Below, one piece after another: positions 652-28,290 of a DNA stretch of 31,175 nucleotides (the first letter of the stretch is position 1; each line of letters opens with the position of its first letter). The notes beneath the pieces are model-generated. The model worked only from the letters and a program-made list of their open reading frames with translations, made no database searches and was not told where the DNA came from. Source of the DNA: a virus. Taxonomy: Duplodnaviria > Heunggongvirae > Uroviricota > Caudoviricetes. The stretch lies in IMG/VR virus record IMGVR_UViG_2565956711_000006, positions 1-31,175 of that record; one strand, 5' to 3'. The translations under genes and the position numbers were made by a program.

Positions 652-678
652 AAGGCCCCATTTAGGGGCCGCTTTTAT
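652..678. terminator. bidirectional intrinsic terminator shared by the convergent ORF 1..648 and ogr
   Basis: GC stem GGCCCC (654-659) / GGGGCC (665-670) with 5-nt loop, followed by a T-run on the plus strand (gcttttat) and on the minus strand (tttatttattt). Confidence 0.6.
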
Positions 679-917
679 AATGCCAGCGATAACTGATCTT
701 CGCCGTGGTGACTTCTTGGAAAAGCTTCTTGTGGCACCATCGCGCCGGGCGCTGGCTGGGTCTGGTTTAGTGAACCGTCTATTTCCGTCATGCTGGTGAA
801 ACAGTACCCGCACAACATATTTTGACACTGGTGATAGCTGCGCCGCACAAGCAAACTCAGCTCAACACTGGTTCTGGTTTTTGCTATTGCACGGCAGCGA
901 GGACAGCGCATTGCCAT
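675..917 (-). CDS. ogr: late-gene transcriptional activator, Ogr/Delta zinc-finger family
   Basis: 80-aa product MAMRCPRCRAIAKTRTSV...YHQCQNMLCGYCF with C-X2-C-X22-C-X4-C spacing as in P2 Ogr (recalled); AGGAGG 7 nt upstream of ATG at 917; lies directly downstream of D as in P2. Confidence 0.8.
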   Translation of the reverse strand: MAMRCPRCRAIAKTRTSVELSLLVRRSYHQCQNMLCGYCFTSMTEIDGSLNQTQPAPGAMVPQEAFPRSHHGEDQLSLAL

Positions 918-4438: not shown

Positions 4439-7372
4439 ATGGCAGACCGCAATTTAAATATCAGGGTGGCATTCAGCGCCCTGAATAATATGTCCCGCCC
4501 TGTCAACGCGGCGCGCCAGAGTGCCGCCGCGTTGGCGTCTCAAATCAATCAGACCAAAACCAGCATCAAAGGGCTTGAGCGTCAGGCAACCAGCTTCGAC
4601 CGCCTCACCGCAGCCAATAAAAAAACCACCGAACAACTGGCCCAGGCGAAAGAACAGGCCCGGCAAATGGCGGCGGCTTATGGCCCGTTACGCCAGCGCA
4701 GCGCCGAACAGGTTGCCGCCCTCAATCAGCAACGTGCAGCCATTCGCCAGTTAACCCAGCAGCAGAAAGGTGAGCAGACGCAGCTTAATCAGTTGCGCGC
4801 CAGCTTCTACAGCGAAGGCATTGCGATCCGCAGCGCCAGCCGGGCGACGGAACAGATCAACCAGCGCACTGCGCAATACAATCGCCAGCTTGCCGAACAG
4901 CAGCGACGGCTTGACGCTGTAAACCAGGCGCAGGCCCGTTACAGCCGCGCCAAAGAAACCGGCGAAAAGATGATGAGCGGGGGAATGAAAACCGCCGCAG
5001 TGGGTGCGGCAACCCTCGCACCTGTCGCCGCTGCGGTGAAATCCTACAGCAGTCTTGAAGACGCGATGAAGGGCGTAGCCAAACAGGTAAACGGCTTGCG
5101 TGACGACAGCGGCAACCGCACCCCGCAATATGAAGAAATGCAGCGGGCGATCATGGATGCCAGCGAAAAGCTGCCAATGGCAAACGGTGCTGTTGACTAT
5201 GCCGCCCTGGTCGAAGGCGGCGCACGTATGGGCGTCGCAAACAGCGATGATCCGTGGGAAAAACAAAAAGCCGATCTGCTGTCTTTCGCCAGCATGGCGG
5301 CAAAGGCTTCTGTTGCCTTCGAACTTCCCGCCGACCAGCTTTCTGAAAGTCTCGGTAAGATTGCCGGGCTGTATAAAATCCCAACCCAAAACATTGAACA
5401 GTTAGGCGACGCCATAAACTACCTGGACGATAACGCGAAGTCGAAAGGCTCCGATATTATCGACGTGCTCCAGCGCGTTGGCGGACTTGCCAGCCAACTG
5501 GATTACAAGCAAGCCGCCGCGCTGGGTTCCACCTTTCTGACGCTTGGATCACCTGCCGAAGTTGCCGCCAGCGCAACCAATGCAATGGTGCGCGAACTAT
5601 CGATCGCCACAGTACAAAGCGATAAATTTTTTGGTGCGCTGGATGAAATCGGCGTCAATGCTGAAAAAGTCCAGAAAAGCATGTCAGTGGACGCGATGGG
5701 CACAATCATTTCAGTGCTGGAAGCGTCCAAAAAACTTGCACCAGATAAGCAGGTAGCCAACCTTACTCAAATTTTCGGTAAAGAGTTCGGCGATGATGCG
5801 CAGAAACTTGCGAACAACCTGCCCGAACTACGCCGCCAAATAGAACTGACGCAGGGCGCAGCCGCCAAAGGTTCTATGAATCGGGAATCTGATATCAATA
5901 AAGATTCCCTTTCAGCTCAGTGGCAACTGACCAAAACCGGCGCGGTTAACGCATTGAGTTCAGCAGGGGAAACGCTCCGCGAACCGCTGATGGATATCAT
6001 GCTTACCGTCAGTAAGGTAGTTGGCAGCGTCCGCCGCTGGGTTGAGGCAAATCCGGCTCTGGTTGGCTCAATCATGAAAGTCACCGCAGCCATAGGCGCG
6101 TTGCTGGTTGTCGTGGGTGGCCTGATGCTGACCATCGGCGCAGTGCTCGGCCAGATGGCACTTGTTCGCCTCAGCTTCACCACGTTGGCCGGTGAAGGAG
6201 GAATAGCGCGGCTGACTGGTGGAGTAATGCGCCTGGGTGGTGCATTCCAGTGGCTTGCTGGCTCGCCTATGCAGGCATTGTTAAGCGCCGGTCGCATGGT
6301 ATTCTGCCCGCTTATCACGCTACTGGCTGGCATTTCTGCACCCGTCTGGGGGCTGATTGCTCTCTTTGCTGCGGCAGCAGTGGCCGTCATTAAATTCTGG
6401 GAACCAATACAGGCATTTTTCACTGGTTTCTTTAACGGCATCATGACGGGCTTACAACCTGTATTTGATGCTTTCAACGCTGTTTTCGCTCCATTAGCCC
6501 CAATCTTTGACGCGATAGGCTCCGCTATTAGCGGCGTTTGGGATTGGTTTACAAAATTGCTTGAACCGATCAAATTTTCCAGCGATGCGCTAGAAACTTG
6601 CACTACTGTTGGCGAAACATTTGGGAGGGTTCTGGGTACTGCAATAAGCGGTTTGCTTTGGCCGCTACAAAAACTGATGGAGGGTGTCGGCTGGGTACTG
6701 GAGAAACTTGATCTAATTCCTGCTGGACTTGATGCAGCAAACGCCAAAGCAGAAAGCCTTAAAAAAGATCCCGTTGTCTGGGAGTGGGATCCGCAGCAAA
6801 AGAAAATGGTTAAAAAGGATTGGCACTGGTCGCCGGATAAACCAAACCAACCTAAACCGCCAAAACCACCAATAACTCCGAAGCCAGTTGGCATCCCAGA
6901 CCTTATGGGAGCGCCAAACTTAACGCCGAAGATGAGCAAGAGTCTGGATAAAATCGCAGACAACACGGGAAAAATGGCGGCAAAAGACGGCCCCGGCGAA
7001 ATCGTCTTCAAGAATAAGCAGCCCTATATCCCGATCCGGGGCGGATATTCGGAACCGCTTAAGCAGGCGCAGCGCCAGCTACCATCCCTTACCGATTGGG
7101 TGACGCAGCAGACCGGATCGCTGATCGCTTCCGTTACACCGTGGCAGGTTGAGAAGCCCGCCGCACGGGTTCCCGTTTCGGCGTCGCCCTCTGCGGCTTC
7201 CGTCGCTGCGCTAATGCCTGCGCCGGGTGGCGATGTATATAACCTTAACTTCGACTTTAGCGGCCAGAAACTGGATGAAGAAACCATTATCAGGCGCGTG
7301 CGCGAAGAACTTGCGTTAGCGAAGCAGCAAGCCGACCGGCGCAAGCGTTCCCAACTGACCGATCACGTCTAA
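4439..7372 (+). CDS. T: tail tape measure protein gpT
   Basis: 977-aa ORF, coiled-coil-rich N-terminus, hydrophobic central region, Pro-rich segment; position after E/E'. Confidence 0.9.
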   Translation: MADRNLNIRVAFSALNNMSRPVNAARQSAAALASQINQTKTSIKGLERQATSFDRLTAANKKTTEQLAQAKEQARQMAAAYGPLRQRSAEQVAALNQQRAAIRQLTQQQKGEQTQLNQLRASFYSEGIAIRSASRATEQINQRTAQYNRQLAEQQRRLDAVNQAQARYSRAKETGEKMMSGGMKTAAVGAATLAPVAAAVKSYSSLEDAMKGVAKQVNGLRDDSGNRTPQYEEMQRAIMDASEKLPMANGAVDYAALVEGGARMGVANSDDPWEKQKADLLSFASMAAKASVAFELPADQLSESLGKIAGLYKIPTQNIEQLGDAINYLDDNAKSKGSDIIDVLQRVGGLASQLDYKQAAALGSTFLTLGSPAEVAASATNAMVRELSIATVQSDKFFGALDEIGVNAEKVQKSMSVDAMGTIISVLEASKKLAPDKQVANLTQIFGKEFGDDAQKLANNLPELRRQIELTQGAAAKGSMNRESDINKDSLSAQWQLTKTGAVNALSSAGETLREPLMDIMLTVSKVVGSVRRWVEANPALVGSIMKVTAAIGALLVVVGGLMLTIGAVLGQMALVRLSFTTLAGEGGIARLTGGVMRLGGAFQWLAGSPMQALLSAGRMVFCPLITLLAGISAPVWGLIALFAAAAVAVIKFWEPIQAFFTGFFNGIMTGLQPVFDAFNAVFAPLAPIFDAIGSAISGVWDWFTKLLEPIKFSSDALETCTTVGETFGRVLGTAISGLLWPLQKLMEGVGWVLEKLDLIPAGLDAANAKAESLKKDPVVWEWDPQQKKMVKKDWHWSPDKPNQPKPPKPPITPKPVGIPDLMGAPNLTPKMSKSLDKIADNTGKMAAKDGPGEIVFKNKQPYIPIRGGYSEPLKQAQRQLPSLTDWVTQQTGSLIASVTPWQVEKPAARVPVSASPSAASVAALMPAPGGDVYNLNFDFSGQKLDEETIIRRVREELALAKQQADRRKRSQLTDHV

Positions 7373-7943: not shown

Positions 7944-7969
7944 TTCTATCAAAGGTTGGTTTGGGAGAA
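7944..7969. repeat. hix/gix-like 26-bp crossover site (left end of invertible tail-fibre segment)
   Basis: ttctatcaaagg tt ggtttgggagaa; inner 14 bp (7956-7969) is the exact reverse complement of 9791-9804. Confidence 0.7.
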
Positions 7970-8290
7970 GCGGCAAAACGGAATGTGGGAACAGGGGAAA
8001 ATCAGATACCTGATATGTCATCATATGCATCAGGTTCAGGCTGGCGAAAAATGCCAGATGGTTCAATTGAACAGTGGGGACGAATTAGTTTTCCTGGTGA
8101 ACACGGGCCTGTATCCGCCAATGTTTCATTCCCGATTCCATTTACACAGACACCGGGCATTGTAATTGTGTGCGATGGTGGTTTCGGGGGCGGGAATATG
8201 TGGGGGGCGACCAACTGGAGCACTACCGGCTTCATAGCTCACTGCAATTATGGTCTTGAAGGTGGTGCGTTTTTCGCTAAGGGCTGGTAA
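7958..8290 (+). CDS. alternative tail-fibre C-terminal exon (Hv'), silent in this orientation, no start codon of its own
   Basis: Frame open from the crossover site: [16 protein letters not shown]...[20 protein letters not shown]; shares LGLGE junction with H; stop TAA 8288-8290 overlaps the G' ATG. Confidence 0.7.
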
Positions 8291-8733
8291 TGATGAAATA
8301 TCTGTACGTAAACAACCTGGCATATCCTTACGAACTTCAGTCTCTTTATGTTGAAAAAGGTGAATGGCCTGAAGAAAAAGGTGTTGATATAGACGAAGTA
8401 ATTTTCAGGGAATATTTCTATGACACACCACCAGAAGGAAAATACAGATGTGTTGGAGAAGATGGACTGCCTGCATGGGCAGATATTCCTCCACCAACAC
8501 GTGAAGAACAAATTGCATCAGCCGAAACTAAAAAGCAGCAATTGATTAACCAGGCCAACGAATACATCAACAGTAAACAATGGCCAGGTAAAGCATCAAT
8601 TGGTCGTCTGAAAGGTGAGGAACTGGCGCAATATAATTTGTGGCTGGATTATCTGGACGCACTGGAGCTGGTCGATACTTCCAGTGCGCCAGATATTGAA
8701 TGGCCTACGCCTCCGGCAGTTCAGGCCAGATGA
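8290..8733 (+). CDS. alternative tail-fibre assembly chaperone (G'/Tfa')
   Basis: 147 aa; C-terminal LDALELVDTSSAPDIEWP parallels IDAVTATDTSTAPDVIWP of the minus-strand G; converges with and overlaps the 3' end of G. Confidence 0.8.
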   Translation: MMKYLYVNNLAYPYELQSLYVEKGEWPEEKGVDIDEVIFREYFYDTPPEGKYRCVGEDGLPAWADIPPPTREEQIASAETKKQQLINQANEYINSKQWPGKASIGRLKGEELAQYNLWLDYLDALELVDTSSAPDIEWPTPPAVQAR

Positions 8734-9307
8734 CATCCGGCGCGGTGCTGGTATCTGTTGCCGTCACCGCGTCAATGTAATTCAGCACAGCGTTAAGTCG
8801 GGTGTTTTCTGTCTGCATCAGCTTCCGCCCGGCCTGTAATTTCAGTTGAATCAGACTAATGGAAGCCATTGCAGTATCAATCAGTGACTGACGCTGTGCT
8901 TCTGCCGCGCCTACTGCGGCGCTATGCTGTGCCTCGGTATCCGTCACCCATTTCTCACCATCCCATTCATCGTATGGCGTTAATGGGGCGATAGTGGTTG
9001 TATTTTCAGGGTAATCACCCGGAACTGTGATTTCTTTGGTATCTCCCGTTTCGGTACTATAGACAACTTCACCGCGATGGTCTGGCACATATTCCCATGA
9101 ATTTAAATCTACAGAGCGACAGATTGCATAACCAGCTTTATGTGTACCTGGTGCATCCAGACAGGAACATGCCGGGATACCGACGCCGACAGCGAGATAT
9201 TCAGTTGATGTAGAAATATATTCCCGCGTTTCGCCATCATAGTTATGTACGATGATTTCCCCATCATTTAAAGCGTAACCGTCTTTTCCCAAAATAGCCT
9301 GTTCCAT
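8705..9307 (-). CDS. G: tail-fibre assembly chaperone gpG (expressed orientation)
   Basis: 200-aa ORF starting immediately after the H stop; conserved Tfa C-terminal motif. Confidence 0.85.
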   Translation of the reverse strand: MEQAILGKDGYALNDGEIIVHNYDGETREYISTSTEYLAVGVGIPACSCLDAPGTHKAGYAICRSVDLNSWEYVPDHRGEVVYSTETGDTKEITVPGDYPENTTTIAPLTPYDEWDGEKWVTDTEAQHSAAVGAAEAQRQSLIDTAMASISLIQLKLQAGRKLMQTENTRLNAVLNYIDAVTATDTSTAPDVIWPELPEA

Positions 9308-10852
9308 TTATGCAGCCCTCACAATGTAGTTAAATGCAATGTTTCGCGGGCTACCATCACCGGCGCCGGAACTGACATGATTGGTTCTATCCATTCGTTT
9401 ACTGTCATTTGTTGTTCCACTCCCATCCTTCCACGAATACAATAACCCGCCATCGCCAATGCTCAACTGCACCGCAAATACGGATGAACCGGATGAATAA
9501 ACATCTCCAGCCATGAGTGGGTTCCCTGTCCATCCATGCATTTCATGGTTATGTTCAAGGATAGATGCTGCCTGACTTGAAAGCAGCAGTCTCGCGGAAT
9601 CAACACCTCGCCCATCATCCCACCCGCGAATAAACTCACCGCGCAAATCCGGTAATTTTAACTTTGGGTAAGCCTTTGCCAGTTTTGGGTACTCTTCGGC
9701 AGAAAAAGGTGCACCGTTGCATTTCAGCCAGCCTGTTGGTGGTGTGGCTGAAGGCCACGGAACAGGCACACCAACGGGTAACGCTGAGCCTTCTCCCAAA
9801 CCAAGGTATTGGAGAATGCCGTTAACTGTCTTTCCCGATAAATCAGTTAAAGTGCTATCAAGCGGCTGCTTACCCGCCAGCGCATTCGTTACAGTGGTGG
9901 CAAAGTTTGGATCATTTCCCAGCGCTGCCGCCAATTCATTCAGCGTGTCCAGTGCAGCCGGGGATGATGCTACCAGTGCAGCAATTGCTGATTTCACAAA
10001 TTCCGTTGTGGCAATCTGCGTATTATTCACTGTCTGCGCCGCAGTAGGTGCGGTGGGTGTTCCGGTCATAGCTGGGCTTGCCAGCGGAGCTTTCAACGCA
10101 AGAGCGTTGTTAATGGTTGCACTGAAATTAGGATCATTGTTGATTGCAGTAGCAATTTCTTTCAGTGTATCCAACGTGGCGGGCGCACCTCCAATCACAG
10201 CAACCAACGCCGCCTGAACAAATGCGGTATTCGCCAGCTGTGTGGAGTTATTACCAGCCGTAGCAGTCGGCGCTGTAGGCGTTCCCGTCAGGGCCGGGCT
10301 TGCCTTTGGTGCATATTGTTTATGAGGGTCTGCCGCTGCGATGTGCGCCGCCAGTTGCTGATCTACGAAGGCTTTAACCTGGATTATCTGGTCATCAACA
10401 TACTGACGAGTCGCCAGTACTACCGAAGGGTCAATTTTCAGCGTCACGGCGGCGGTGCTGCTGACAATCAGGATCATGCGTACAACCTGTACGCGCCCGC
10501 TTCCCTCCTGTAACTGCGGCTTATACGTTTCCGCACAGTTGGCTACGGCAATCATATCGCCGTCTTTATCGAATAAACCGATTTCACGGATCCACCACCC
10601 GCCCTCGTCTTCAGGTATCACCTGCTCGGCAATAATCTGGTTGGCGTTATTCGGGTCAATGCTCAGACTATTAAGCGGCTTGCGGCGCAGCTCATGAACC
10701 AGCGCCGTTTGTGCCGGGTTCGGCGTCGGCAACACGCCGTTACCATCGCCTACAGCCATCTTGGTGATTTCAACCTGCGCACCCAATGCCGTGGCATTTG
10801 CCAGTTTCGCCGCGCCCACATTGGTTAGCACGGCATAATATTTAGTCGCCAC
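9308..10852 (-). CDS. H: tail fibre protein gpH (constant N-terminal part plus currently joined variable tip Hv)
   Basis: N-terminal region resembles P2 H (..AVLTNVGAAKLANATALGAQVEITKMAVGDG..); C-terminal tip has tail-collar-like motifs (PWP..GWLKCNGAPFS..LPDLRGEFIRGWDDGRGVD); the track starts at TTG 10873, but GTG at 10852 with GGAG upstream aligns better with the P2 H start. Confidence 0.85.
   Translation of the reverse strand: MATKYYAVLTNVGAAKLANATALGAQVEITKMAVGDGNGVLPTPNPAQTALVHELRRKPLNSLSIDPNNANQIIAEQVIPEDEGGWWIREIGLFDKDGDMIAVANCAETYKPQLQEGSGRVQVVRMILIVSSTAAVTLKIDPSVVLATRQYVDDQIIQVKAFVDQQLAAHIAAADPHKQYAPKASPALTGTPTAPTATAGNNSTQLANTAFVQAALVAVIGGAPATLDTLKEIATAINNDPNFSATINNALALKAPLASPAMTGTPTAPTAAQTVNNTQIATTEFVKSAIAALVASSPAALDTLNELAAALGNDPNFATTVTNALAGKQPLDSTLTDLSGKTVNGILQYLGLGEGSALPVGVPVPWPSATPPTGWLKCNGAPFSAEEYPKLAKAYPKLKLPDLRGEFIRGWDDGRGVDSARLLLSSQAASILEHNHEMHGWTGNPLMAGDVYSSGSSVFAVQLSIGDGGLLYSWKDGSGTTNDSKRMDRTNHVSSGAGDGSPRNIAFNYIVRAA
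9791..9816. repeat. hix/gix-like 26-bp crossover site inside H (right end of invertible segment)
   Basis: ttctcccaaacc aa ggtattggagaa, near-perfect palindrome; encodes ILQYLGLGE in the H frame; resembles remembered hixL/gix sites. Confidence 0.7.
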
Positions 10853-11456
10853 TTGCGATCTCCACGGTGTCAATTAAATGGATTGCCGCCCCGGTGTAAT
10901 CATCACCGCCCACGGCTATGGTTTCAGGAAAATACGGGTACACGGTTAGCGTATCGCCGGAATAACTGCCCGCGCCGATATACAGATCGCCGGTTGTTTG
11001 CAGGTGAAGAGACATTCCCAGCATATGACGGCTGCACGGCTTCACATCGGCGATCAGGCGTTCAAGTTCCTGATAGGTTTCTTCACTAATGCCCTGGTCT
11101 TCCACGCCAATATCCAGCGTGAAGGTGCCCGGTGCGGTGTCGATGTTCCACCACTCGTTAACCCGGATGAAGAAGCCGAACGGCTCCACAACCCGGCGCA
11201 TGGCGCCCGTTGTACCCTTGTACTTATGCAGGTAAAACGCATCGGCCACCGCCTTTCGTTTTGTGTTTATCGGCCAGGCCTCATCCCAGCGATCAACGGA
11301 GAAGGCCCACGCCAGATAGGGCAACAGATCAGCCCGACACGTCCACGGGTTCCACAACTGGCGCAGCGGCACGGGCACTTCACCCAACGACGCACAGACG
11401 CGCGCGGCGACGCGCTCCATTCGGCTGGCGCTGGGTGGTAACAGGTCATTACTCAT
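10842..11456 (-). CDS. I: baseplate assembly protein gpI
   Basis: ORF after J; ATG at 11456 (MSNDLLPP...) overlaps the J stop; position and size fit P2 I. Confidence 0.8.
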   Translation of the reverse strand: MSNDLLPPSASRMERVAARVCASLGEVPVPLRQLWNPWTCRADLLPYLAWAFSVDRWDEAWPINTKRKAVADAFYLHKYKGTTGAMRRVVEPFGFFIRVNEWWNIDTAPGTFTLDIGVEDQGISEETYQELERLIADVKPCSRHMLGMSLHLQTTGDLYIGAGSYSGDTLTVYPYFPETIAVGGDDYTGAAIHLIDTVEIASGD

Positions 11457-16974: not shown

Positions 16975-17823
16975 TTATGACGCCGCCTTCTGGCGGGCTG
17001 TCGTGGTTCTTTTCTTCGCTGCCGGCTTGCTTTTAGCGGCGGGCTTTTTGGTTTCCCGCTTCGCTTTTGGCTGGGCTGGCGGCGTTGCCGTCTGGGTTTC
17101 GGTGTTGTTTGCTTCTGGCTTGCCGTCTGCGCCCTCACCGTCAGCAGGTTGCCCGGACTTCTTAAGCGCACGTTGCAGAAGCTCAATATCACGGGTTACG
17201 CCTGCTTTTTTCGGGTTCAACACTGCCGCCTGGCGCAGGTATTCAACCGCAGCGGTAAGCGATTCAACGTTGTCAGTCAGGCGCAGCGTATACCCCAGCG
17301 CCTTAAGCAGCTTTGAGCGCACCTCATCCGGCATATCTTCGTTCAGGGTTAAGCCCCGTAACGCTTCCAGCAGGTCAGCGGCGACCGGCGCAACAGCCGG
17401 GTTAGCTTTGAATGCAGCCAGGACGGGATCGCAAATTTCTTCCACCAGTACGGTGGCAGTGGTGCGGCGATACTGATCCGGCATCGGCAACTTATGGCGC
17501 AAGACATACTGACCAATGCGCAGGGCTTCAGCGATGTTTCCGCAGTCACAGCACCAGATCATGACGGTGGTTAACACGTCGTCAGACTGGCCGGAATCTG
17601 CCGTAAGTACGCCTTCGATCCACGGCTGGTAGTCCGGCAGCAGTTCGCGTTTTAAATCCGCTTTAGCCTTCTGGGACTGGACACGGCTTAAACGGGCTTT
17701 ATCCAGTCGCAGGCGGTGAAGCATGGTTTCGTAGGCCGTCATTTCAAGCTGCGACGGCTCACGGCTGGCGTGGCGGCGTTCAGCCATCACGCGGTTAAAA
17801 TGTTGTTGAGCAGGTGTCAACAT
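16975..17823 (-). CDS. M: terminase small (endonuclease) subunit gpM
   Basis: 282 aa; P2 M-like position after N; SD GGGGG; long basic Lys/Ala/Pro-rich C-terminal tail. Confidence 0.82.
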   Translation of the reverse strand: MLTPAQQHFNRVMAERRHASREPSQLEMTAYETMLHRLRLDKARLSRVQSQKAKADLKRELLPDYQPWIEGVLTADSGQSDDVLTTVMIWCCDCGNIAEALRIGQYVLRHKLPMPDQYRRTTATVLVEEICDPVLAAFKANPAVAPVAADLLEALRGLTLNEDMPDEVRSKLLKALGYTLRLTDNVESLTAAVEYLRQAAVLNPKKAGVTRDIELLQRALKKSGQPADGEGADGKPEANNTETQTATPPAQPKAKRETKKPAAKSKPAAKKRTTTARQKAAS

Positions 17824-19951: not shown

Positions 19952-21664
19952 ATGAATACAGCCGAAGACCTCAGCACAAAAGCCAAAAGCCTCTACTGGC
20001 AGGCGTTTAGCATCACTCAGATTTCTAAGGAAATCGGGGTGAGCATTAACACGATCTACAGTTGGCGCCGCCGCTATGAATGGGATAAAGCTACCCCCAT
20101 GCAGCGGGTGCAGGATCGCACGCACGTTCGTTACCTGCGCCTGGTGGAAAAGGACGACAAAACCCCGAAGGACTTTAAAGAAATTGACCTGCTGGCGCGC
20201 CAGCTTGACCGCTTTGAACGGCATGAGCGACGCGACCAGGAGAAAGAGAAGAAGGCGAAGACCCCGAAAAACCATTTCACCGAAGAACAGATAACTCAGC
20301 TTCGCGCCCTGATCTTTGATTCGCTATACGAGCATCAAAAACGCTGGTTCAAACAGTGGAACCGGCGTAACCGCTTTATCCTCAAATCGCGCCAGATTGG
20401 TGCCACCTGGTACTTTGCCCGCGAAGCGCTGTTGCGTGCGCTGGAAACCGGAAATAATCAGATATTCCTGTCAGCCAGCCGCGCCCAGGCGTTCCAGTTC
20501 AAGCGGTTCATTCAGAAGCTGGCAAGGGAAATAGGAGTAGAACTTAAGGGCGGTGATGCCATTGAGTTAAGCAACGGTGCGATCCTGTATTTTCTCGGCA
20601 CCTCCGCCGCGACGGCCCAGAGCTACACCGGCGATCTGTACCTTGATGAAGCCTTCTGGATCAGTAATTTCATCAAACTGCGCTCGGTGGCCGCAGGCAT
20701 GGCGACACAAAAAGGACTGCGCCGCACCTACTTTTCGACGCCTTCCAGTGAAGAACATGAAGCCTATCCCTTCTGGACTGGCGATCAGTTCAATGAAAGC
20801 CGCCGCCGATCCGATCGGGTGGATATCGACACCAGTTATAAGGCACTGAAAAACGGCAAGCTATGCGGGGATAACATCTGGCGCCAGATAGTCACGCTGG
20901 AAGACGCCATGAAGCTCGGTTTCGATCTGGTTGATATTGATGAAATCCGTAGCGAAAACTCCCTTGACGAATACGCCAACCTGTACGGATGTACCTTCGT
21001 TAAAGCAGGGGAACGCGCCTTCGACTACAACACAATTTTGGGCTGCGGCGTTGATGGCTACATGCCGGACGCGTGGCCGGACTGGAACCCGTTTGCACCT
21101 CGCCCGCTGGGTAATCGCCCTGTCTGGGTTAGCTATGACCCCAACGGCAGCAGCGGCAAAGGCGACAGCGCCGGGCTGGTTGTGCTGGCCCCGCCAGCCG
21201 TGCCGGGTGGCAAGTTCCGCGCGGTAGAACGCCACCAGTTACGCGGCATGGAGTACGAAGAGCAGGCCAAATTTATTAAAGAGATCACCACCCGCTACAA
21301 CGTGCAGCACATTGCTATCGACGGCACAGGGATCGGCGATGCGGTTTATCAACTGGTGATCAAGTTCTTCCCGCAGGCGGTTAAATACAACTATTCACCG
21401 GTTCTTAAGCGGTCGATGGTGCTCAAAATGTTGATGGTCATTCGTGCCGGGCGCTTTGAGTTCGACGCCGGAATGATGGATCTCGCACAGTCGTTTATGA
21501 CCGTGCGTAAAGTCACCGCAGGCGGCGTTATTACCTACCAGTCCGATCGGGCCCGTGGCAGCAATCACGGCGATCTGGCATGGGCAACTATGCAGGGCAT
21601 TTACAACGAACCGATCGGCGCGGAAGTGACCGGCGATAACGGCAGTTTTGTGGAGGAGTTTTAA
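19952..21664 (+). CDS. P: terminase large (ATPase) subunit gpP
   Basis: 570 aa; N-terminal HTH-like segment then ATPase and nuclease regions; divergent from O as in P2. Confidence 0.9.
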   Translation: MNTAEDLSTKAKSLYWQAFSITQISKEIGVSINTIYSWRRRYEWDKATPMQRVQDRTHVRYLRLVEKDDKTPKDFKEIDLLARQLDRFERHERRDQEKEKKAKTPKNHFTEEQITQLRALIFDSLYEHQKRWFKQWNRRNRFILKSRQIGATWYFAREALLRALETGNNQIFLSASRAQAFQFKRFIQKLAREIGVELKGGDAIELSNGAILYFLGTSAATAQSYTGDLYLDEAFWISNFIKLRSVAAGMATQKGLRRTYFSTPSSEEHEAYPFWTGDQFNESRRRSDRVDIDTSYKALKNGKLCGDNIWRQIVTLEDAMKLGFDLVDIDEIRSENSLDEYANLYGCTFVKAGERAFDYNTILGCGVDGYMPDAWPDWNPFAPRPLGNRPVWVSYDPNGSSGKGDSAGLVVLAPPAVPGGKFRAVERHQLRGMEYEEQAKFIKEITTRYNVQHIAIDGTGIGDAVYQLVIKFFPQAVKYNYSPVLKRSMVLKMLMVIRAGRFEFDAGMMDLAQSFMTVRKVTAGGVITYQSDRARGSNHGDLAWATMQGIYNEPIGAEVTGDNGSFVEEF

Positions 21665-22714
21665 TTGAGCGGCAAAAAAAAATTCAGGGCGCCAACTGCT
21701 GCGCCAGCCAGCACGGCCAGCAACGCAGCCACCCCGCTGGAAAGCGTGGAATCTTTCAGCTTTGGCGACCCGATCGCAGTCAACGATCGCGCGTCTCTTA
21801 TGGAGTGCCTCGAATGCCATAACAATGGCCGCTGGTATGAACCACCGATCAGCCCCTACGGGCTGGCGCGCATGTTCGACGTTGCCGCCTATCACCAGTC
21901 ACCGCTGATATTTAAACGCAATGTTATCGCCAGTTGCTACATACCGCACCCGCTGTTGACCCGGCAGGAGTTCACCGCCTGGGTGCAGGATTATTTAATT
22001 TTCGGTAACTGTTACATGGAATGCCGCCGCAACCGACTCGGCCAGCCGATCGAGCTGCGGCACAGCCAGGCAAAATATACGCGGCGCGGCATAGACCCGG
22101 CGCAATTCTGGTTTGTTCCGCGCTACGTTGACGATCACGCGTTCGAACCGGGCAGCGTCTGCCAGATCAAGAACCCCAGCCCGCACCAGGAGATCTACGG
22201 TGCGCCGGAATATCTGGCCGCGCTACAAAGCGCCATGCTGAACGGTGAAGCAACGGTGTTCCGCCGCAACTACTACATTAACGGCAGTCATGCGGGTGTG
22301 ATCGTCTACCTCACTGACCCGGTGGCGAATAATAACGATGTGGAAAAGCTTAAGAAGTCGCTGAAAGATGCACGCGGCAACGGTGCTTTTAAAAACCTGT
22401 TTGTCTACGCGGCGGGCGGGAAAAAAGACGGCCTGCAAATTATGCCGTTCAGCCAGGTGGCGGCGAAGGATGAGTTTACCGGCATCAAAGACGCCACCCG
22501 CGACGACCTGTTAGCCGCGCACCGCGTGCCGCCCGTTCTGATGGGGGTAATGCCGAATAACTCCGGTGGCTTCGGCGACGTAGAGAAAGCGGCGAAGGTG
22601 TTTTCCATCAACGAACTGGCCCCGATACAAGAAAGCCTGAAAGAGTTAAACGACTGGCTGGGGATCGACGTGGTGCGCTTCAACCCTTACGCACTGTTGC
22701 AGGCAGCAATCTGA
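21665..22714 (+). CDS. Q: portal protein gpQ
   Basis: 349 aa; starts at TTG 21665 directly after the terminase TAA, with SD GGAGGAG 8 nt upstream. Confidence 0.88.
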   Translation: MSGKKKFRAPTAAPASTASNAATPLESVESFSFGDPIAVNDRASLMECLECHNNGRWYEPPISPYGLARMFDVAAYHQSPLIFKRNVIASCYIPHPLLTRQEFTAWVQDYLIFGNCYMECRRNRLGQPIELRHSQAKYTRRGIDPAQFWFVPRYVDDHAFEPGSVCQIKNPSPHQEIYGAPEYLAALQSAMLNGEATVFRRNYYINGSHAGVIVYLTDPVANNNDVEKLKKSLKDARGNGAFKNLFVYAAGGKKDGLQIMPFSQVAAKDEFTGIKDATRDDLLAAHRVPPVLMGVMPNNSGGFGDVEKAAKVFSINELAPIQESLKELNDWLGIDVVRFNPYALLQAAI

Positions 22715-22784
22715 CGCCAGCCCGGACACACCCACCACCACCGCGCAAAGGCCTACACGGCCATAACTGACCACACCGCACGTA

Positions 22785-22822
22785 AGCCCCTCAGCAGCCT
22801 GCTGGCAGGGGCTTTTCTTTTT
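22785..22822 (+). terminator. candidate intrinsic terminator after the P-Q operon
   Basis: GC-rich imperfect hairpin agcccctcagcagcctgctggcaggggc followed by ttttctttttcc. Confidence 0.45.
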
Positions 22823-22924
22823 CCTCAACCCACCACGGCGAACCGAAAACGACGTAGCAGCGAGGCGCAGCGGCGCGAAAATCGGCGCAGATAATACCGA
22901 CCCTATCCCACCCCTCAGCGCGCG

Positions 22925-22943
22925 CTCATTCCCCCGCCTCGCC
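22925..22943. other. candidate cos (cohesive end) site
   Basis: The minus strand reads GGCGAGGCGGGGGAATGAGC; the first 12 nt match my recollection of the P2 19-nt cohesive end (GGCGAGGCGGGGAAAGCAC); lies just past the Q 3' end as in P2. Confidence 0.5.
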
Positions 22944-23092
22944 CGCACGCAGAAACCCCGCTTTTTTGTGCAAATGTGCAGACCAGCGGAAGGCCCGCCC
23001 CGTCTGGTCTGCTCCTGAAAAATCACCATCATAAAATTTGTGCGGTTTTGCGCGAAATTTTGCACTGATTTTCAGCACTCCCGCAAAGCCAT

Positions 23093-23809
23093 TCACTGGC
23101 CTGCGTTAACCATGGCGGCGCGGCAGGCGTTCCATCCAATTTTTTGCTGAACGGTGCCGAATTGGCACAGCATTGCAGCGACCGCCATGAATGAGCCGAA
23201 CTCGTAATAGTTTGCCGGATCATTTCCCTGGTAATGACCCCCAACATGTTCAGCCCACTGCCCAAGTGTCCAGTTGAAGCGTTCGCTATGTTGCTCGTCC
23301 GGCAGCGATACCGGCGCTGGCTCAGTTTTCCAGCCGTGATACCACATAAATGCACAGTAAGCGGCAACATCCCGGGGGTCTCCCTTAGCTATATGCTGTT
23401 GAAAGTCTGCCTGGCATTGGCTTGGCCAACCATCTTGTTTCCAGTCCGCGTCATAGCCATATTTTAATTGAGCCTTGTACAACTTCTCAGCCAGGGCGGA
23501 GCTGAAGTCGGTCACCAGTTTCAGCGTATCAGGATGAAGCTCTGCCGGAACTACCGGCGCTGGCGTGGCGGAGTATAGCGGGGCGATATTTCTTTCCAGA
23601 TCGGTAATTACGCTCCATACAGGAATAGATTCAACACCCTGCTTAGCCATATCGCGGTAACTGTCTGCATAGGCCAGCACGGGATTTCGCCCTGACTCCT
23701 CCGCTTCGAGCGATGCCAGCGCGATACGCGCCAGCTCCTCCACCTCATCAAAGTTATATCCGCCGCCTGCTGCAATTTTTGCTGCGCGTTCTCTGGTAAT
23801 TTTGCTCAT
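23093..23809 (-). CDS. hypothetical protein, 238 aa, downstream of replication gene A
   Basis: Start at ATG 23809 (MSKITRERAAK...) with SD AGGAG; no family recognised; last gene before cos. Confidence 0.6.
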   Translation of the reverse strand: MSKITRERAAKIAAGGGYNFDEVEELARIALASLEAEESGRNPVLAYADSYRDMAKQGVESIPVWSVITDLERNIAPLYSATPAPVVPAELHPDTLKLVTDFSSALAEKLYKAQLKYGYDADWKQDGWPSQCQADFQQHIAKGDPRDVAAYCAFMWYHGWKTEPAPVSLPDEQHSERFNWTLGQWAEHVGGHYQGNDPANYYEFGSFMAVAAMLCQFGTVQQKIGWNACRAAMVNAGQ

Positions 23810-23861
23810 GCTGTCACTCCTGTTTCTTCTGAAAATGAATAAGCGAAGCCCCGGCACGCTG

Positions 23862-26219
23862 TTATGACGCACCGTTAAAGGCTTTTTTCATTCGGTTAAT
23901 AAGACTATTTGTCTGTTGCTTCGCCGCCATCACCTGCGACGGCAGCTTATCCAGCCCCGACGCGGCGCGGTTGCGCGATACCAGCCGCCCATCCTGCACT
24001 GTCATAACAAGATCGCCGCACGCCACTGACGCACCGGCCATCATCGATCTGACCATTCCGGCGCTGGCATCAATCCCACGCAGCGCCAGCAGTTCACTGA
24101 TCTGCTGCTCTTTCACGGATATCCCGGCCCCGTCTTCCCGTTCCGGTGGCCGTTTTTTCCGCTTACTTCGCACATCGTCACTTAGCCTCTGTGCCAGTTC
24201 CCGCTTTTCCTGCCGTGAAAGAGCATCAAAATTCACCGTCTCGCCCACTTCGTGATCGGCATGTTCAAGACCGTCAGCACCTGTCGCGGGATCCCGCGTA
24301 CAGTTATTGACAGAACTCCGAGGGGCGGCGTTGCCGCCTGAAAAACCAACGTCAACGGCCACACCGTCAGCGCTCTGGCGCTTCGGCACGATTTTGTATT
24401 GAGTGGTGCGGGTGAAGATCAAAGAGTCATTGCCCGTAATCGGGCAGTAAATACCAGTGATTCGCTGGACGTTATCGCCGTAGGCGTTGCCGTTTTCAGT
24501 GGTTTCATAATTCAGACGGATGCGCAGCTTATCGCGCTCAACCAACGGGCCACCCTGGGCTAATACGTAGTTATCCCATTCGCCACCGTTAGCGGCCTGC
24601 CGGGCGGTTTCCAGTTCAGGGTGTAACACCAGTTCGCGATCGCCCAAGCGGCGAAGTTCGCGATATACCGTGACCGGCGCACCGCCGATCTGCTGAAACT
24701 GACGAATAGCCCAGCGCGATGCCCACGCGCTAACGCGGAGTGACATTTCTTTCAGGTCTTCCCCGGTTTCGTCGTCCTTCTCACCATCCAGCGCGAAGCC
24801 GTCGATATTCTTCGAAATGTATTTCGCTATGTAGCCAGTTGCGCTGCCGTGGGCATCGTCGATCGGCACGACCTGAAAGCGGTTTTCCTGCGCTCCCGGT
24901 TCGTTGCCGTCTTCTTTCAGGGCATATTTACGGAAGATTTCGCGCGCCTGCTCGACGCATTCCGGGCGCATAAAAAGAAGCAAATGCCAGTGTGGCGTTG
25001 CATCGTGGTGCGGTTCGACCACGCGGAAACCAAAGACGCGGATCCCTTTTCTCTTCCATGCGGCGCGGGTTCTCGCCCAGACTTTGCAAAGATATTGCTG
25101 TGTCTCACGCGGCGACGCGCCACAGTATTTGTTATTACGGCGCCCGTTATGCTGCATAGCGTGATAGCGGGAAGGCGCTGTCAGCGTGTAGAAGTCACCG
25201 GCCAGCCCTTCCAGCTTCGCCAGATCTTCAAATCCGCGCATTCTCGTCATGAGTTCGCGGCGACGGTTGGCCGGATTGGCAACACTGCCGGCGACTTTAT
25301 CGATCAGCGAAATGCGCTCGCCCGTGTCCTGGTCTTCCAGTTCCATAGCCTTGAGGTATTCACGGTTAGCTTTTTTCTGGGCCAGCCATTCCGTAAGGCA
25401 CGGGGCGCTACTGTATGGGGAGGATTTTTTCTGGACGTATCCCGCTGCGATCATCAAATGCTCACGCCACCGGGCATGGATACGGCGCAGGCGGTTTAAC
25501 CACCACTGCGGTGACTCAAGACGGAGAACTGCGCGTAACGCGTCCTCCGCTTCAAGTTCTTCATTGCAATAAGCTGTCCAACCGGGGATCGGCGTTTTCA
25601 GATGCACTGCCAGCGATGCAATACGGCCATAGCCAGAAAGCGCCGCGAACTCAGGATCGCCGGTGCGCACCAACTGGTGATCGGACTCGCGTATAAACTC
25701 GCTCGTAAAGATATCGGCAAGCGTATAAGCCAGTCTTTTTAACTCTTTTTTCCCTGCCCAGAGCATACGGAAAAGCTGATCGCGAATTGGCAGCAGAATG
25801 CCGGGCATCACAGTATCAGGCTGGTAAACACTGTTCACGCTATCAATACGCGTTAATACGTGGCGCTCAAAGGTGTTAAGCAGCCAGTGATCTGCCGCTT
25901 TGCGGTCTTTCACATCCAGCGCATCAAGCTTCGCTGCAAAGTGGCGGCGGACATATTGCGGAAGAGAAGCCAGACGGCGACGCAGCAGCTTACTGCGTTC
26001 CGGCTTTTCGTCCTCCGCTACCAGTTCACTGAACGCAATATGCTTACGCGTGCCGTCCGGCATGAGATAGTCGAAACCATCCAGCCCCGGCGCTACATCA
26101 ACGCCAATCGGCTGGTATGATTTGTTCCCGCCATAAGCGTAAGGGATAGCATTGTCAGTGCTACCCGGATACGGTGGAGGTGGAGAAGGGGCGCGACGGC
26201 CACGGGTTGCCGTGGTCAT
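23862..26219 (-). CDS. A: replication initiation protein gpA (rolling-circle nicking endonuclease)
   Basis: 785 aa; contains ATPHWHLLLF (HUH-type) and GYIAKYISKN (catalytic Tyr) motifs typical of P2 A family. Confidence 0.92.
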   Translation of the reverse strand: MTTATRGRRAPSPPPPYPGSTDNAIPYAYGGNKSYQPIGVDVAPGLDGFDYLMPDGTRKHIAFSELVAEDEKPERSKLLRRRLASLPQYVRRHFAAKLDALDVKDRKAADHWLLNTFERHVLTRIDSVNSVYQPDTVMPGILLPIRDQLFRMLWAGKKELKRLAYTLADIFTSEFIRESDHQLVRTGDPEFAALSGYGRIASLAVHLKTPIPGWTAYCNEELEAEDALRAVLRLESPQWWLNRLRRIHARWREHLMIAAGYVQKKSSPYSSAPCLTEWLAQKKANREYLKAMELEDQDTGERISLIDKVAGSVANPANRRRELMTRMRGFEDLAKLEGLAGDFYTLTAPSRYHAMQHNGRRNNKYCGASPRETQQYLCKVWARTRAAWKRKGIRVFGFRVVEPHHDATPHWHLLLFMRPECVEQAREIFRKYALKEDGNEPGAQENRFQVVPIDDAHGSATGYIAKYISKNIDGFALDGEKDDETGEDLKEMSLRVSAWASRWAIRQFQQIGGAPVTVYRELRRLGDRELVLHPELETARQAANGGEWDNYVLAQGGPLVERDKLRIRLNYETTENGNAYGDNVQRITGIYCPITGNDSLIFTRTTQYKIVPKRQSADGVAVDVGFSGGNAAPRSSVNNCTRDPATGADGLEHADHEVGETVNFDALSRQEKRELAQRLSDDVRSKRKKRPPEREDGAGISVKEQQISELLALRGIDASAGMVRSMMAGASVACGDLVMTVQDGRLVSRNRAASGLDKLPSQVMAAKQQTNSLINRMKKAFNGAS

Positions 26220-26395
26220 ATTTGAACTACATCCCCTACTTTAACGGCTTTGGCTTCCTCTTCTGATTTCTTCAGAATTGTGGTTATTGACTCCCTTCCA
26301 TAAGCTGTTACTTTCGCCTCAACCAACCAATACGGCACAATCTCGCCACGACTCACGCTTATGATTTCAACGATCCAGGCGTCTACAAGATTCAT
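26216..26395 (-). CDS. hypothetical small protein (59 aa) coupled between dam and A
   Basis: Not in the ORF track (below cut-off); ATG overlaps dam stop (TAATG) and its TGA overlaps the A ATG (ATGA); MNLVDAWIVEIISVSRGEIVPYWLVEAKV... Confidence 0.45.
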   Translation of the reverse strand: MNLVDAWIVEIISVSRGEIVPYWLVEAKVTAYGRESITTILKKSEEEAKAVKVGDVVQI

Positions 26396-27366
26396 TAAAA
26401 CGCCTCCATATCGTCAAACGTGCCTGCCGCAACCATCGCGTTGTAAGTCGCATCACCCATCACGGCGCCACAATCAGGGCAACCGCCGCCGTAACGCCCG
26501 CAGCAGTCGCAGACAGGCAGCACGCCGATCACTTCTTTGGCCTTCTGGCGGTTGTCTTTGTCAGTGCTGACGGAACGTTGCACGCTGATTTCGTGCATCT
26601 TGAAAGGCTGATAAATCGCGCGGGTGGCTTCGGTGTCGCTGTTGGAAATGACAACCTTCACGCCATGCTTACGGTTAACTTCCAGCAGTGCCTGGACTAA
26701 CTGGCGGTGGTTGTCTTCCGTGAATGGTTCGGTGTGGTATTGGGTAAAATCGGCTGTTTTGCTTTCAGGCAGGTAAGGCGGATCGCAGTAAACGAGAACA
26801 TCGCCACCCGTGACGACCTGTAGAGAACGCTGGAACGGCGCGCAAAGAAATATTGCCTTTGTATCGTTGGCCTTTTCGGCAAACAGGCGGATTTCATTTT
26901 CAGGAAAGTAGACGCTCTTATACTTGCCAAACGGCACGTTAAAGCCGGTCTTACGGCTGTAACGGCATAAGCCGTTATAACCGTGGCGGTTCAGATACAG
27001 GAATTGAGCAGCACGCATGATGCGCGCCATTTCGACGCCATAACGCAACCCACAGCTTTTTACCGTACATACCTGCTTATTGAACGCGGCGCGGACTTCG
27101 TTGTACCCCTGCGGGCTGTTCTTGCTGTTGAACAGTTCGCGGGCCGCATCGATCACTAAGTCCGGGTAACGGGTGACTTTCCGATAAAGGTTAATAAGAT
27201 CCGGGTTGATATCAGCCAGCACATAGCGGCGGTACTCAGTCGCCAGAAATACCGATGCGCCGCCTACGAACGGTTCGATCAGGCAGTCGGCTTTAGGAAG
27301 GTGCGGCAGCAGGTCAGGAAGGACACGGGTTTTACCCCCTGCCCATTTGATGAACGGGCGGATCAT
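26395..27366 (-). CDS. dam: DNA adenine methyltransferase (Dam family) with Cys-rich C-terminal extension
   Basis: MIRPFIKWAGGK N-terminus, FVGGASV AdoMet motif, DPPY catalytic motif; extra C-terminal about 45 aa with CDCCGRYGGGCPDC. Confidence 0.85.
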   Translation of the reverse strand: MIRPFIKWAGGKTRVLPDLLPHLPKADCLIEPFVGGASVFLATEYRRYVLADINPDLINLYRKVTRYPDLVIDAARELFNSKNSPQGYNEVRAAFNKQVCTVKSCGLRYGVEMARIMRAAQFLYLNRHGYNGLCRYSRKTGFNVPFGKYKSVYFPENEIRLFAEKANDTKAIFLCAPFQRSLQVVTGGDVLVYCDPPYLPESKTADFTQYHTEPFTEDNHRQLVQALLEVNRKHGVKVVISNSDTEATRAIYQPFKMHEISVQRSVSTDKDNRQKAKEVIGVLPVCDCCGRYGGGCPDCGAVMGDATYNAMVAAGTFDDMEAF

Positions 27367-27622: not shown

Positions 27623-27805
27623 TTACTGGTGATCCGCTGATTGGTTAGCTGACTTGAGGGCAGGCCAGACAAGGAGAAGAAGAGCGCCAACGAAGAAGGC
27701 GTCGCCAATCACCGAAAGCAGGTAGCTGGTGAAATCCACTGCTACGACCATGAAGGCCAACAGCAGGGCCAGCGCCGGACGTAGTGAATCCAGCACGCGC
27801 AGCAT
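27623..27805 (-). CDS. small hydrophobic protein with two predicted TM helices (60 aa)
   Basis: MLRVLDSLRPALALLLAFMVVAVDFTSYLLSVIGDAFFVGALLLLVWPAL; ATG overlaps the TerB-like stop (TGATG). Confidence 0.55.
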   Translation of the reverse strand: MLRVLDSLRPALALLLAFMVVAVDFTSYLLSVIGDAFFVGALLLLVWPALKSANQSADHQ

Positions 27806-28239
27806 CAGAGATAATCCTCAACACGCAGCCCCAGACGGCGCCCGACCTCTTCCAGCACCTTCTGTTCTTCTGGTTCGATCTGGCCGTCCGCTTCGGCGAT
27901 AGTCAGCATGTTGACGAAGACTTCTTCGGCTTCTTTCGGATCGTTTTTGATGTCGTCGATTTCGCGCAAAATGTTCATGCGGCCAACGCGGAAGCCAGCT
28001 TCAAGCTGTTCCGTATAGCGGTTGATGGTGGATGTAATTTCATTGCCGAAATGCGCAAGGCGCGGGTTAGAGCGGATAAGCTGATCCAGCTTGCTGGTTT
28101 CTTCTTTTTCGATCTCGCCATCGGCGGCAGATACCAAAAGACAACCGCCGACAATAGCTTCCATAAGATCGCGATTTTCCACTTTCTTAAGTTCAACTTT
28201 TGCCGCTGCTACTTTTTTTCCAAACAGTTTATTAAACAT
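27805..28239 (-). CDS. TerB-like domain protein
   Basis: Start at ATG 28239 (MFNKLFGKK..); two repeats of the TerB-type helical motif (..GGCLLVSAADGEIEKEE.. and ..TIAEADGQIEPEEQKVL..) resembling remembered TerB; the plus-strand antisense ORF 27784..28257 is low-complexity. Confidence 0.65.
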   Translation of the reverse strand: MFNKLFGKKVAAAKVELKKVENRDLMEAIVGGCLLVSAADGEIEKEETSKLDQLIRSNPRLAHFGNEITSTINRYTEQLEAGFRVGRMNILREIDDIKNDPKEAEEVFVNMLTIAEADGQIEPEEQKVLEEVGRRLGLRVEDYL

Positions 28240-28274
28240 GCTATTTATCCTTTTTAGGATGAGTGAAAGCGCCA

Positions 28275-28290
28275 TCACTTAATTAAGTGA
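28275..28290. promoter_or_regulatory. 16-bp perfect palindrome, candidate operator
   Basis: tcacttaattaagtga is its own reverse complement; sits in the AT-rich gap 36-51 bp upstream of the TerB-like start. Confidence 0.4.

Follow-up and report, generated by a model that had tools for sequence, protein, structure and literature searches.

Phage lambda packages its DNA from concatemers, and P2 is reported to use circular monomers. At the lambda cohesive-end site (cos, divided into cosN, cosB, and cosQ), the small terminase subunit recognizes sites beside the nick and the large subunit makes staggered nicks that produce 5′ overhangs and unit-length genomes (PMC7617512). The ends of P2-family phages are given as 19-nucleotide (nt) 5′-extruding ends, and P2-related phages are said to carry a conserved 55-bp core that is required for packaging, both in passages of PMC3931495 and PMC5694545 that rely on older work (Padmanabhan 1974 and Ziermann & Calendar 1990); the end length and the definition of the core used here are therefore second-hand. 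Cos is the one part that satellite P4 has in common with P2, whose terminase packages it (PMC9122126). The closest described phages are SEN4 and SEN5 (KT630645 and KT630646), which formed plaques on indicator strains and were sequenced from DNA of purified particles, with reported sticky ends ggcgaggcgggggaacgag (PMC5261728). Here, we analyze a 31,175-nt stretch of viral DNA (positions 1 to 31,175 of IMG/VR record IMGVR_UViG_2565956711_000006, referred to as the window), in which the gap between the portal gene and a cargo gene very probably holds the cos of a temperate P2-family phage of the SEN4/5 type (Senquatrovirus), present as a prophage in Escherichia coli.

The predicted cohesive end in the window and the ends of known phages

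The reading of the gap as cos draws on its sequence, synteny, conservation throughout the family, the intact enzymes encoded beside it, and its near-identity (18/19) to the end of a phage with reported sticky ends. From these observations we infer the exact nick positions, the assignment of proteins to sequence words, and the inducibility of this copy. The central features are the following.

22925 to 22943, minus strand: predicted 19-nt 5′ cohesive end, GGCGAGGCGGGGGAATGAG, placed from SEN4/5, the start of the SEN5 record, P2 cosL, and the register of relatives
22911 to 22924, minus strand: left-arm flank CGCGCGCTGAGGGG, directly 3′ of the cohesive end and probably the context of the bottom-strand nick (GCGCGCG^ on the plus strand)
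21665 to 22714, plus strand: portal gene (P2 gpQ homologue; PF04860), its 3′ end toward cos as in P2, identical to the portal of the circular relative L028 described below

An earlier note on this DNA had quoted a minus-strand sequence at 22924 to 22943 and remarked that its first 12 nt match the P2 cohesive end. The quoted letters are exact, as the minus strand reads GGCGAGGCGGGGGAATGAGC from 22943 to 22924 (plus strand from 22924 to 22943, GCTCATTCCCCCGCCTCGCC), and the match is correct, as P2 cosL (NC_001895, positions 1 to 19) is GGCGAGGCGGGGAAAGCAC, with the initial 12 nt identical. The conserved half of the P2-family end, GGCG(A/T)GGCGGGG, is found at 12 of 12 positions. In a window this rich in GC, the 12-mer carries little weight by itself: with up to one mismatch, 0.31 occurrences are expected, and 28 of 100 shuffled sequences contained a match. 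With the SEN4/5 19-mer and up to three mismatches, on the other hand, this site was the only match in the window, and none of 100 shuffles gave any.

Comparison of the 19-mer from 22943 to 22925 with the published SEN4/5 sticky end revealed a single mismatch, at position 16 (T in the window, C in SEN4/5). Furthermore, the SEN5 GenBank record opens at the same base: its base 1 is window position 22943 on the minus strand, and its last base is 22944. The proposal of a cos-like end is thus borne out for site and sequence, and its length has to be amended, homology giving 19 nt (22925 to 22943) and not the 20 nt quoted. G1 of cos lies 229 nt from the Q stop codon in the orientation seen in P2, 186, and SEN5, with the cargo gene and gpA beyond it.

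Without gaps, the core of the window is identical to that of SEN5 at 54 of 55 positions, to that of P2 at 35, and to that of phage 186 at 29. SEN4/5 also agree with the window at 69 of 70 positions from −30 to +40, share the order Q-terminator-cos, and are collinear with it over the whole genome. Apart from overhang position 16, SEN5 differs in having canonical GCA words in the distal right arm, where those of the window are degenerate, and the hosts differ as well (E. coli for the window element, Salmonella for SEN4/5). Similarity between the window and SEN5 stops at −100 from the nick because the cargo differs, with four genes in SEN5 and one gene of 238 amino acids (aa) in the window.

The resemblance to P2 is looser but extends over the same layout. 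After the 12 identical overhang positions, the match falls to 15/19 overall, the 3′ half of the overhang being different, and the nine bases that follow (GCGCGCTGA) match again. As in the window, the P2 site is oriented toward Q with a terminator between them, and a variable accessory slot (old/tin in P2) separates cos from gpA; the GCAY words of P2 stand at −122, −110, −100, and −28. In contrast, neither the GGCGNGG word at about −55 nor the first member of the TGCA pair of the window is present in P2, the P2 portal protein is only about 51% identical, and the P2 tail module FI-U is inverted relative to that of both the window and SEN5. Phage 186 and satellite P4 share with the window the extended right arm, with GGCGCGG at about −55, a TGCA..TGCAT pair, and GCG-rich nick flanks, and both have three GCAT words at −123, −110, and −100. 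They depart from it in the overhang, which is GGCGTGGCGGGGAAAGCAT in 186 and has the P2 sequence in P4, and P4 has no terminase of its own. Pseudomonas phage phiCTX carries the word GGCGTGGCGGGG near a Q homologue and has annotated repeats and an IHF site around cos, but its end is 21 nt long and starts one base earlier, the cargo gene ctx lies between cosL and Q, and its right arm cannot be aligned with that of the window, with only one GCAY word at the conserved offsets. The lambda cos is similar in outline mechanism, whereas its overhang (12 nt), sequence, and proteins are unrelated.

To follow the site beyond these phages, we used a portal-based search with one genome per species, which returned 11 related prophage loci with portal identities from 99% to 50%. 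In eight of them (from Salmonella, Citrobacter, Hafnia, Rouxiella, Photorhabdus, Serratia, Yersinia, and Chromohalobacter), the word GGCG(A/T/G)GG(C/A)GGGG occurs in the same orientation 169 to 287 nt downstream of the portal gene. In Salinicola socius (locus L014, about 4502 to 5547), a cos-like motif lies 1,045 nt downstream of the portal gene, a spacing that points to an insertion separating cos from Q, like those of phiCTX (ctx) and the Ralstonia phage phiRSY1. No convincing motif was found within 1.2 kb of the portal gene in two Chromohalobacter loci (L013 and L016).

An ungapped stack of nine lineages, including P2, kept both flanks in register across the 19-nt core, with the consensus ...gcG.GC.|GGCG.GGcGGGG.....a.|.GCGcGctg..GG. 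Core positions 1 to 12 are conserved and the last seven (13 to 19) vary freely among relatives, and the left-arm flank (consensus.GCGcGctg..GG) aligns without gaps in all nine of these divergent lineages. On either strand, the presumed nick follows a heptamer resembling GCGYGCG (TGCGTGCG^G and AGCGCGCG^C in the window), and the same two-fold symmetry is seen in P2 and 186. The nicks would accordingly fall between 22944 and 22943 on the minus strand and between 22924 and 22925 on the plus strand, a placement that we favor mainly because the spacing of the flanks is fixed at 19 nt. If so, the mature genome ends can be annotated at 22943 and 22925. The earlier proposal was correct and the finding an ordinary one, this being the cos of a known phage type, and it leaves the understanding of P2-family packaging unchanged.

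The right arm of cos and the remainder of the gap

Three further features lie on the gpA side of the cohesive end.

22944 to 23009, minus strand: proximal right arm, comprising the nick flank GCGTGCG (22944 to 22950), TGCACATTTGCACAAAAAA (22962 to 22980), GGCGGGC (22993 to 22999), and CCAG (23004 to 23007)
23040 to 23064, minus strand: distal right arm, with three GCA words about one helical turn apart, namely, GCAC at −100 (23043 to 23040), GCAA at −108 (23051 to 23048), and TGCAA at −121 (23064 to 23060)
22978 to 23012, no strand assigned: perfect 9-bp inverted repeat, GCAGACCAG/CTGGTCTGC, found by a repeat search inside the right arm

In the proximal arm, TGCACATTTGCACAAAAAA forms a TGCA-N4-TGCA-A5/6 element that supplies GCAC words at −36 and −28, and the GGCGNGG word at about −55 and CCAG at about −64 (22993 to 23007) are common to the lineages on this side. 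The consensus of the nine lineages, again without gaps, is ccaG....ggcg.gg..T.........tgca....tGCA.aaAAA....c...tt..gcG.GC.|, and the same proximal layout is present in 186 and P4.

Farther out, GCAY words occur at about −120, −110, and −100 in P2, 186, P4, SEN5, Citrobacter, Hafnia, Rouxiella, Photorhabdus, and Serratia, and at two of these three positions in Chromohalobacter and Salinicola. The exact offsets are −122, −110, −100, and −28 in P2 and −123, −110, −100, and −28 in 186 and P4, and the spacing from the nick is kept from P2, 186, P4, and SEN4/5 to prophages as distant as those of Chromohalobacter. At the conserved offsets the words are confined to the G-rich strand. Between −140 and −20, we counted 42 of them in ten lineages (P4 excluded), compared with 9.8 expected from each locus's own background, and the bottom-strand control gave 9 in the eight prophage lineages. 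The significance of GCAY is restricted to this offset-specific analysis and does not extend to an 8-mer count: the word TGCACAAA, considered as an over-represented 8-mer, was rejected, with 17 occurrences at one mismatch in the whole window compared with 37 expected. The window itself has canonical GCAY only at −100, −36, and −28, the words at −120 and −108 being GCAA, and the circular relative L028 carries the identical distal GCAA variant.

Since P4 shares only its cos with P2, the right-arm words common to the two are most simply part of the packaging signal. Exchange of cargo provides a second view of its extent. In all 30 related loci that we scored, similarity to the window on the cargo side reaches at least −69, whatever the cargo, with about 125 nt usually kept and the similarity typically stopping at −100, −121, −129, or −168. 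In every cargo context, GCA words are found at about −120, −110, and −100, usually just inside the cargo module's own terminator. These limits suggest a functional cos block of about 155 bp (approximately 22911 to 23066), in which the distal GCA words are plausibly a candidate binding array for the terminase small subunit. A more specific version, which we put forward only tentatively, is that the words at −120, −110, and −100 together with the pair at −36 and −28 constitute the recognition array of gpM, equivalent to cosB, and that its outer edge sets the inner boundary of the cargo/defense hotspot. A literature search for an account of where P2 terminase binds yielded P22 material only, Ziermann & Calendar 1990 being outside its reach. 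The precisely phased GCAY array shared by the family and P4 is the sole mildly new element of the locus, and it offers a concrete target for work on terminase recognition.

The inverted repeat at 22978 to 23012 folds as DNA with −13 kcal/mol (z = −4.2). Its hairpin is strong in the window, in the Salmonella s1 locus, and in Citrobacter; in SEN5, Photorhabdus, and Rouxiella, the words of the sequence persist but the hairpin does not. We therefore rejected it as a conserved structure and regard it as lineage specific. We also considered it as a terminator of the gpA-cargo operon; no T-run is present on either strand.

On the Q side of cos, the gap contains two more features.

22784 to 22824, plus strand: predicted intrinsic terminator of the P-Q operon (tQ equivalent), a hairpin at 22784 to 22814 followed by TTTCTTTTT
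22646 to 23065, minus strand: spurious 139-codon open reading frame (ORF) spanning the 3′ end of Q, the terminator, and cos

The terminator that the earlier note had placed in this gap is supported by structure and by comparison. On the Q-sense strand, 70 nt past the Q stop codon, AAGCCCCTCAGCAGCCTGCTGGCAGGGGCTT is predicted to fold as RNA with −18.9 kcal/mol (z = −2.36) directly before the T-run. A hairpin and T-run are found 128 to 132 nt from cos G1 in five loci (Salmonella s1, Citrobacter, Hafnia, Rouxiella, and Photorhabdus), in which inner-stem substitutions preserve pairing, and P2 tQ and 186 tW are annotated at the equivalent position. The comparison thus confirms this predicted intrinsic terminator as real and positionally conserved. 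A promoter scan of 22500 to 23300 detected none.

The long ORF across the gap had been suspected of being spurious, and the suspicion is upheld. It has no Pfam match, its frame is broken by stop codons in seven relatives (Salmonella s1, with a 99% identical portal, Citrobacter, Hafnia, Rouxiella, Photorhabdus, Serratia, and Yersinia), and RefSeq leaves it unannotated in E. coli EC09. One metagenomic contig (L025) has an automatic call of an equivalent 138-aa ORF, which has no family matches. The 139-codon ORF should go unannotated.

Intactness of the prophage and alternative explanations

The window opens with the first prophage gene and closes with the int stop codon. It is collinear throughout with SEN5 (KT630646.2, Senquatrovirus, Peduoviridae) at 86 to 97% nt identity, or 84 to 97% in the common blocks, with the tail-fiber, cargo, and several early-region segments swapped relative to SEN4/5. 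A prophage of E. coli EC09, integrated in the fieF-cpxP intergenic region (EC09 locus coordinates 2510 to 2795 and 33982 to 34158), is 99.3% identical to the whole window at the nt level and 100% identical to the segment from 22600 to 23900. Besides the portal gene, the packaging and replication genes are as follows.

16975 to 17823, minus strand: terminase small subunit (gpM homologue; PF05944 at 2e-42), full-length, 97.9% identical to that of SEN5 and identical at 281 of 283 positions to L028 gpM
19952 to 21664, plus strand: terminase large subunit (gpP homologue; Pfam Terminase_6N, Terminase_6C, and Terminase_5), 98% identical to that of SEN5, with no internal stops
23862 to 26219, minus strand: replication initiator (P2 gpA homologue; PF05840 at 6e-106), 91% identical to SEN5 A over 794 aa

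We found that the gene set is complete with respect to structure and packaging, as the earlier note had supposed. By tblastn, the SEN5 head, tail, lysis, terminase, portal, int, C, cox, and A proteins all have full-length counterparts in the window without frameshifts, and Ogr (675 to 917, minus strand, PF04606), Int, C, and Cox are present. The element encodes its own gpM/gpP terminase and gpQ portal (PF05944; PF03237/PF17289/PF06056; PF04860), each full-length, and mapping of the SEN5 proteins onto the window gave identities of 349/349 aa for the portal, 98% for gpP, and 97.9% for gpM. In a Pfam scan near the gap, the P2-type large terminase and the portal lie on the plus strand and the scaffold, capsid, and small terminase genes on the minus strand; on the opposite side of the gap from terminase and portal is the gpA replication protein, so that the gpA homologue and Q flank the cos/cargo region. 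The domains of gpP are those expected of a packaging ATPase with an RNaseH-like nuclease domain, whose action at this cos is a prediction, and the gpM homologue is presumed to recognize cos.

A relative with the same cos exists as a circle. L028 (NZ_JBQJRQ010000002.1, positions 1 to 32330) is a separate circular record of 32,330 bp from E. coli 2020N21-246-1, whose chromosome (NZ_CM125665.1) carries a copy as well. The record is labeled "plasmid unnamed3," but it contains the whole genome of a phage of this type, circular and joined across attP, and it has the appearance of a prophage, excised or replicating, that the assembly rendered as a plasmid. L028 and the window are 99.7% identical over the stretch that starts at the holin gene and includes cos, and the two cos sequences agree in full as far as −168, although the cargo genes differ. 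Ogr, gpM, gpP, and gpQ are identical or nearly identical in the two. Because L028 is circular and has this cos, phages with exactly this cos variant evidently excise and persist as circles, packaging itself being a separate matter. An intact ogr is annotated in L028, and both the window gene and the EC09 ORF match it exactly, which makes the RefSeq "partial" flag on the EC09 gene an annotation artifact. The SEN5 record has a mislabeled counterpart, its "ogr" being a 39-aa ORF (22160 to 22279) on the strand opposite the real 80-aa Ogr/Delta zinc-finger gene (PF04606), which is intact in the window at 675 to 917 (minus strand).

Together, the gene complement and this relative support the view that the prophage is apparently intact and competent for packaging, and the complete gene set argues that this E. 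coli element is no remnant. In the sequence of events that we envisage, the prophage would excise and replicate as a circle, and terminase expressed late (gpM, 16975 to 17823; gpP, 19952 to 21664) would bind the cos region of about 155 bp (approximately 22911 to 23066). The right arm would most likely position the small subunit, through the TGCA-N4-TGCA-A6 pair, the GGCGNGG word, and the phased GCA array about 100 to 120 nt out. Nicking of the minus strand 5′ of G22943 and of the plus strand 5′ of C22925, at a distance of 19 nt, would then linearize the genome and leave GGCGAGGCGGGGGAATGAG and the complementary sequence as 5′ overhangs, and the DNA would be pumped via the gpQ portal into a procapsid. 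The hairpin and T-run at 22784 to 22824 would stop transcription of the P-Q operon ahead of cos. After injection into a new host, the overhangs would anneal and be ligated.

Several observations weigh against this interpretation of the site. The phiCTX end, 21 nt long and begun one base earlier, indicates that nick positions can shift in the family; the paper on SEN4/5 gives their sticky end without saying how the ends were determined (PMC5261728), so that we treat those ends as a report and not as a demonstration; of the three distal GCA words in the window, two are noncanonical (GCAA), which could weaken terminase binding, although the free circle L028 has the same variant; and in a scan of viral contigs for the cos core, which gave 25 matches, a SEN4/5 genome was the only one to start at the site, the 24 others having no end there. 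How far do these points favor another explanation? That the 12-nt word arose by chance from GC-rich sequence and plays no part in packaging might be argued from the shuffling results with the 12-mer, but the 19-mer test, the SEN5 genome ending here, the position and orientation relative to Q as in P2, and the conservation in other genera with flanks in register make it vanishingly improbable, and we regard a chance match as excluded by the comparative data. That the site is a true cos whose nicks are not 19 nt apart at 22943 and 22925, the overhang being 20 to 21 nt long or shifted by one base as in phiCTX, is improbable, though much less so. The phiCTX cosL, annotated as starting one base upstream of the GGCG word, the 20 nt quoted in the earlier note, and the unstated method behind the SEN4/5 19-mer all speak for it; against it, the P2 and 186 ends, which are annotated as experimentally cut sites, are 19 nt long and start at GGCG, the window aligns with both phages without gaps on both flanks, and the SEN4/5 authors report 19 nt.

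Of the alternatives to a functional cos in an intact prophage, the one that we consider the most serious, while still unlikely, is that cos is intact but the prophage cryptic, with excision, replication, or assembly lost, in which case the site would be a relic or would depend on a related helper for terminase and capsids. The near-identical EC09 prophage carries RefSeq partial flags on ogr, the cargo gene, and the dam methylase, the window has an alternative tail-fiber cassette (7961 to 8733) and is missing the recombinase carried by L028, and its two noncanonical distal GCA words fit this explanation too. However, the window ogr is full-length and equal to the intact L028 copy, the flagged methylase and cargo genes are accessory, the SEN5 virion, lysis, terminase, int, C, cox, and A proteins are all full-length, and L028, with the same cos variant, was found excised and circular. 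We therefore retain the reading of the gap as the cos of an apparently intact prophage.

The cargo slot and other accessory genes

The inner edge of a variable cargo slot is marked by cos. In P2-like phages, the accessory/defense hotspot beside cos is a known reservoir of antiphage systems (Rousset et al. 2022), and the window likewise has variable content between gpA and cos/gpQ, in the form of a single gene.

23093 to 23809, minus strand: uncharacterized 238-aa cargo gene of the variable slot that separates cos from gpA

Translation of the cargo gene likely starts at the ATG at 23809, which has an AGGAG 7 nt upstream, and not at the GTG at 23872. The protein matches only phrog_16519 (2e-47) and phrog_4838 (2e-45), two PHROG families with no assigned function, and searches of Pfam, PADLOC, and NCBIfam were all empty, so that it corresponds to no recognized antiphage system in them. 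In EC09, RefSeq labels the gene "partial, missing C-terminus." It is absent from SEN5, but an identical protein is encoded in 274 blocks of the collection, between gpA and portal in all four of the places shown. The slot is occupied by four genes in SEN5, by a methylase in L028, and by the one 238-aa gene in the window, and among loci with this cos the sequence from about −175 to −125 from the nick is of at least six unrelated kinds. Given its location in a slot described as an antiphage hotspot, the 238-aa gene is a candidate accessory or defense gene.

Outside the slot, we noted several other accessory genes. A TerB-domain protein (PF05099; phrog_632, "tellurite resistance") is encoded in the early region at 27805 to 28278 (minus strand) and is absent from SEN5. 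Conversely, the SEN5 cytosine methyltransferase is absent from the window, while a D12-class adenine methyltransferase is kept at 26395 to 27366; its counterpart in EC09 is flagged as partial by RefSeq.

In the tail-fiber region, a second, promoter-less C-terminal fiber fragment (7961 to 8290, plus strand, PF21882) is followed by a second tail-fiber assembly gene (8290 to 8733, PF02413). The two (7961 to 8733, plus strand) lie head-on to the expressed fiber gene H and chaperone G (8705 to 10873, minus strand), in an arrangement reminiscent of an invertible cassette for host range. At the spot matching the fiber cassette, L028 carries a recombinase gene (24400 to 24981), and the window has none; a search for a long inverted repeat flanking 7961 to 8733 found none. 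Without recombinase or long flanking repeat, the cassette may be frozen in one orientation.

The first ORF of the window (1 to 648, plus strand, 215 aa) gave no match in a Pfam scan and matches solely PHROGs of unknown function. Its place in the circular relative L028, with int/attP on one side and ogr on the other, marks it as a gene of the phage and not of the host, and it is possibly a moron adjoining the attachment site.

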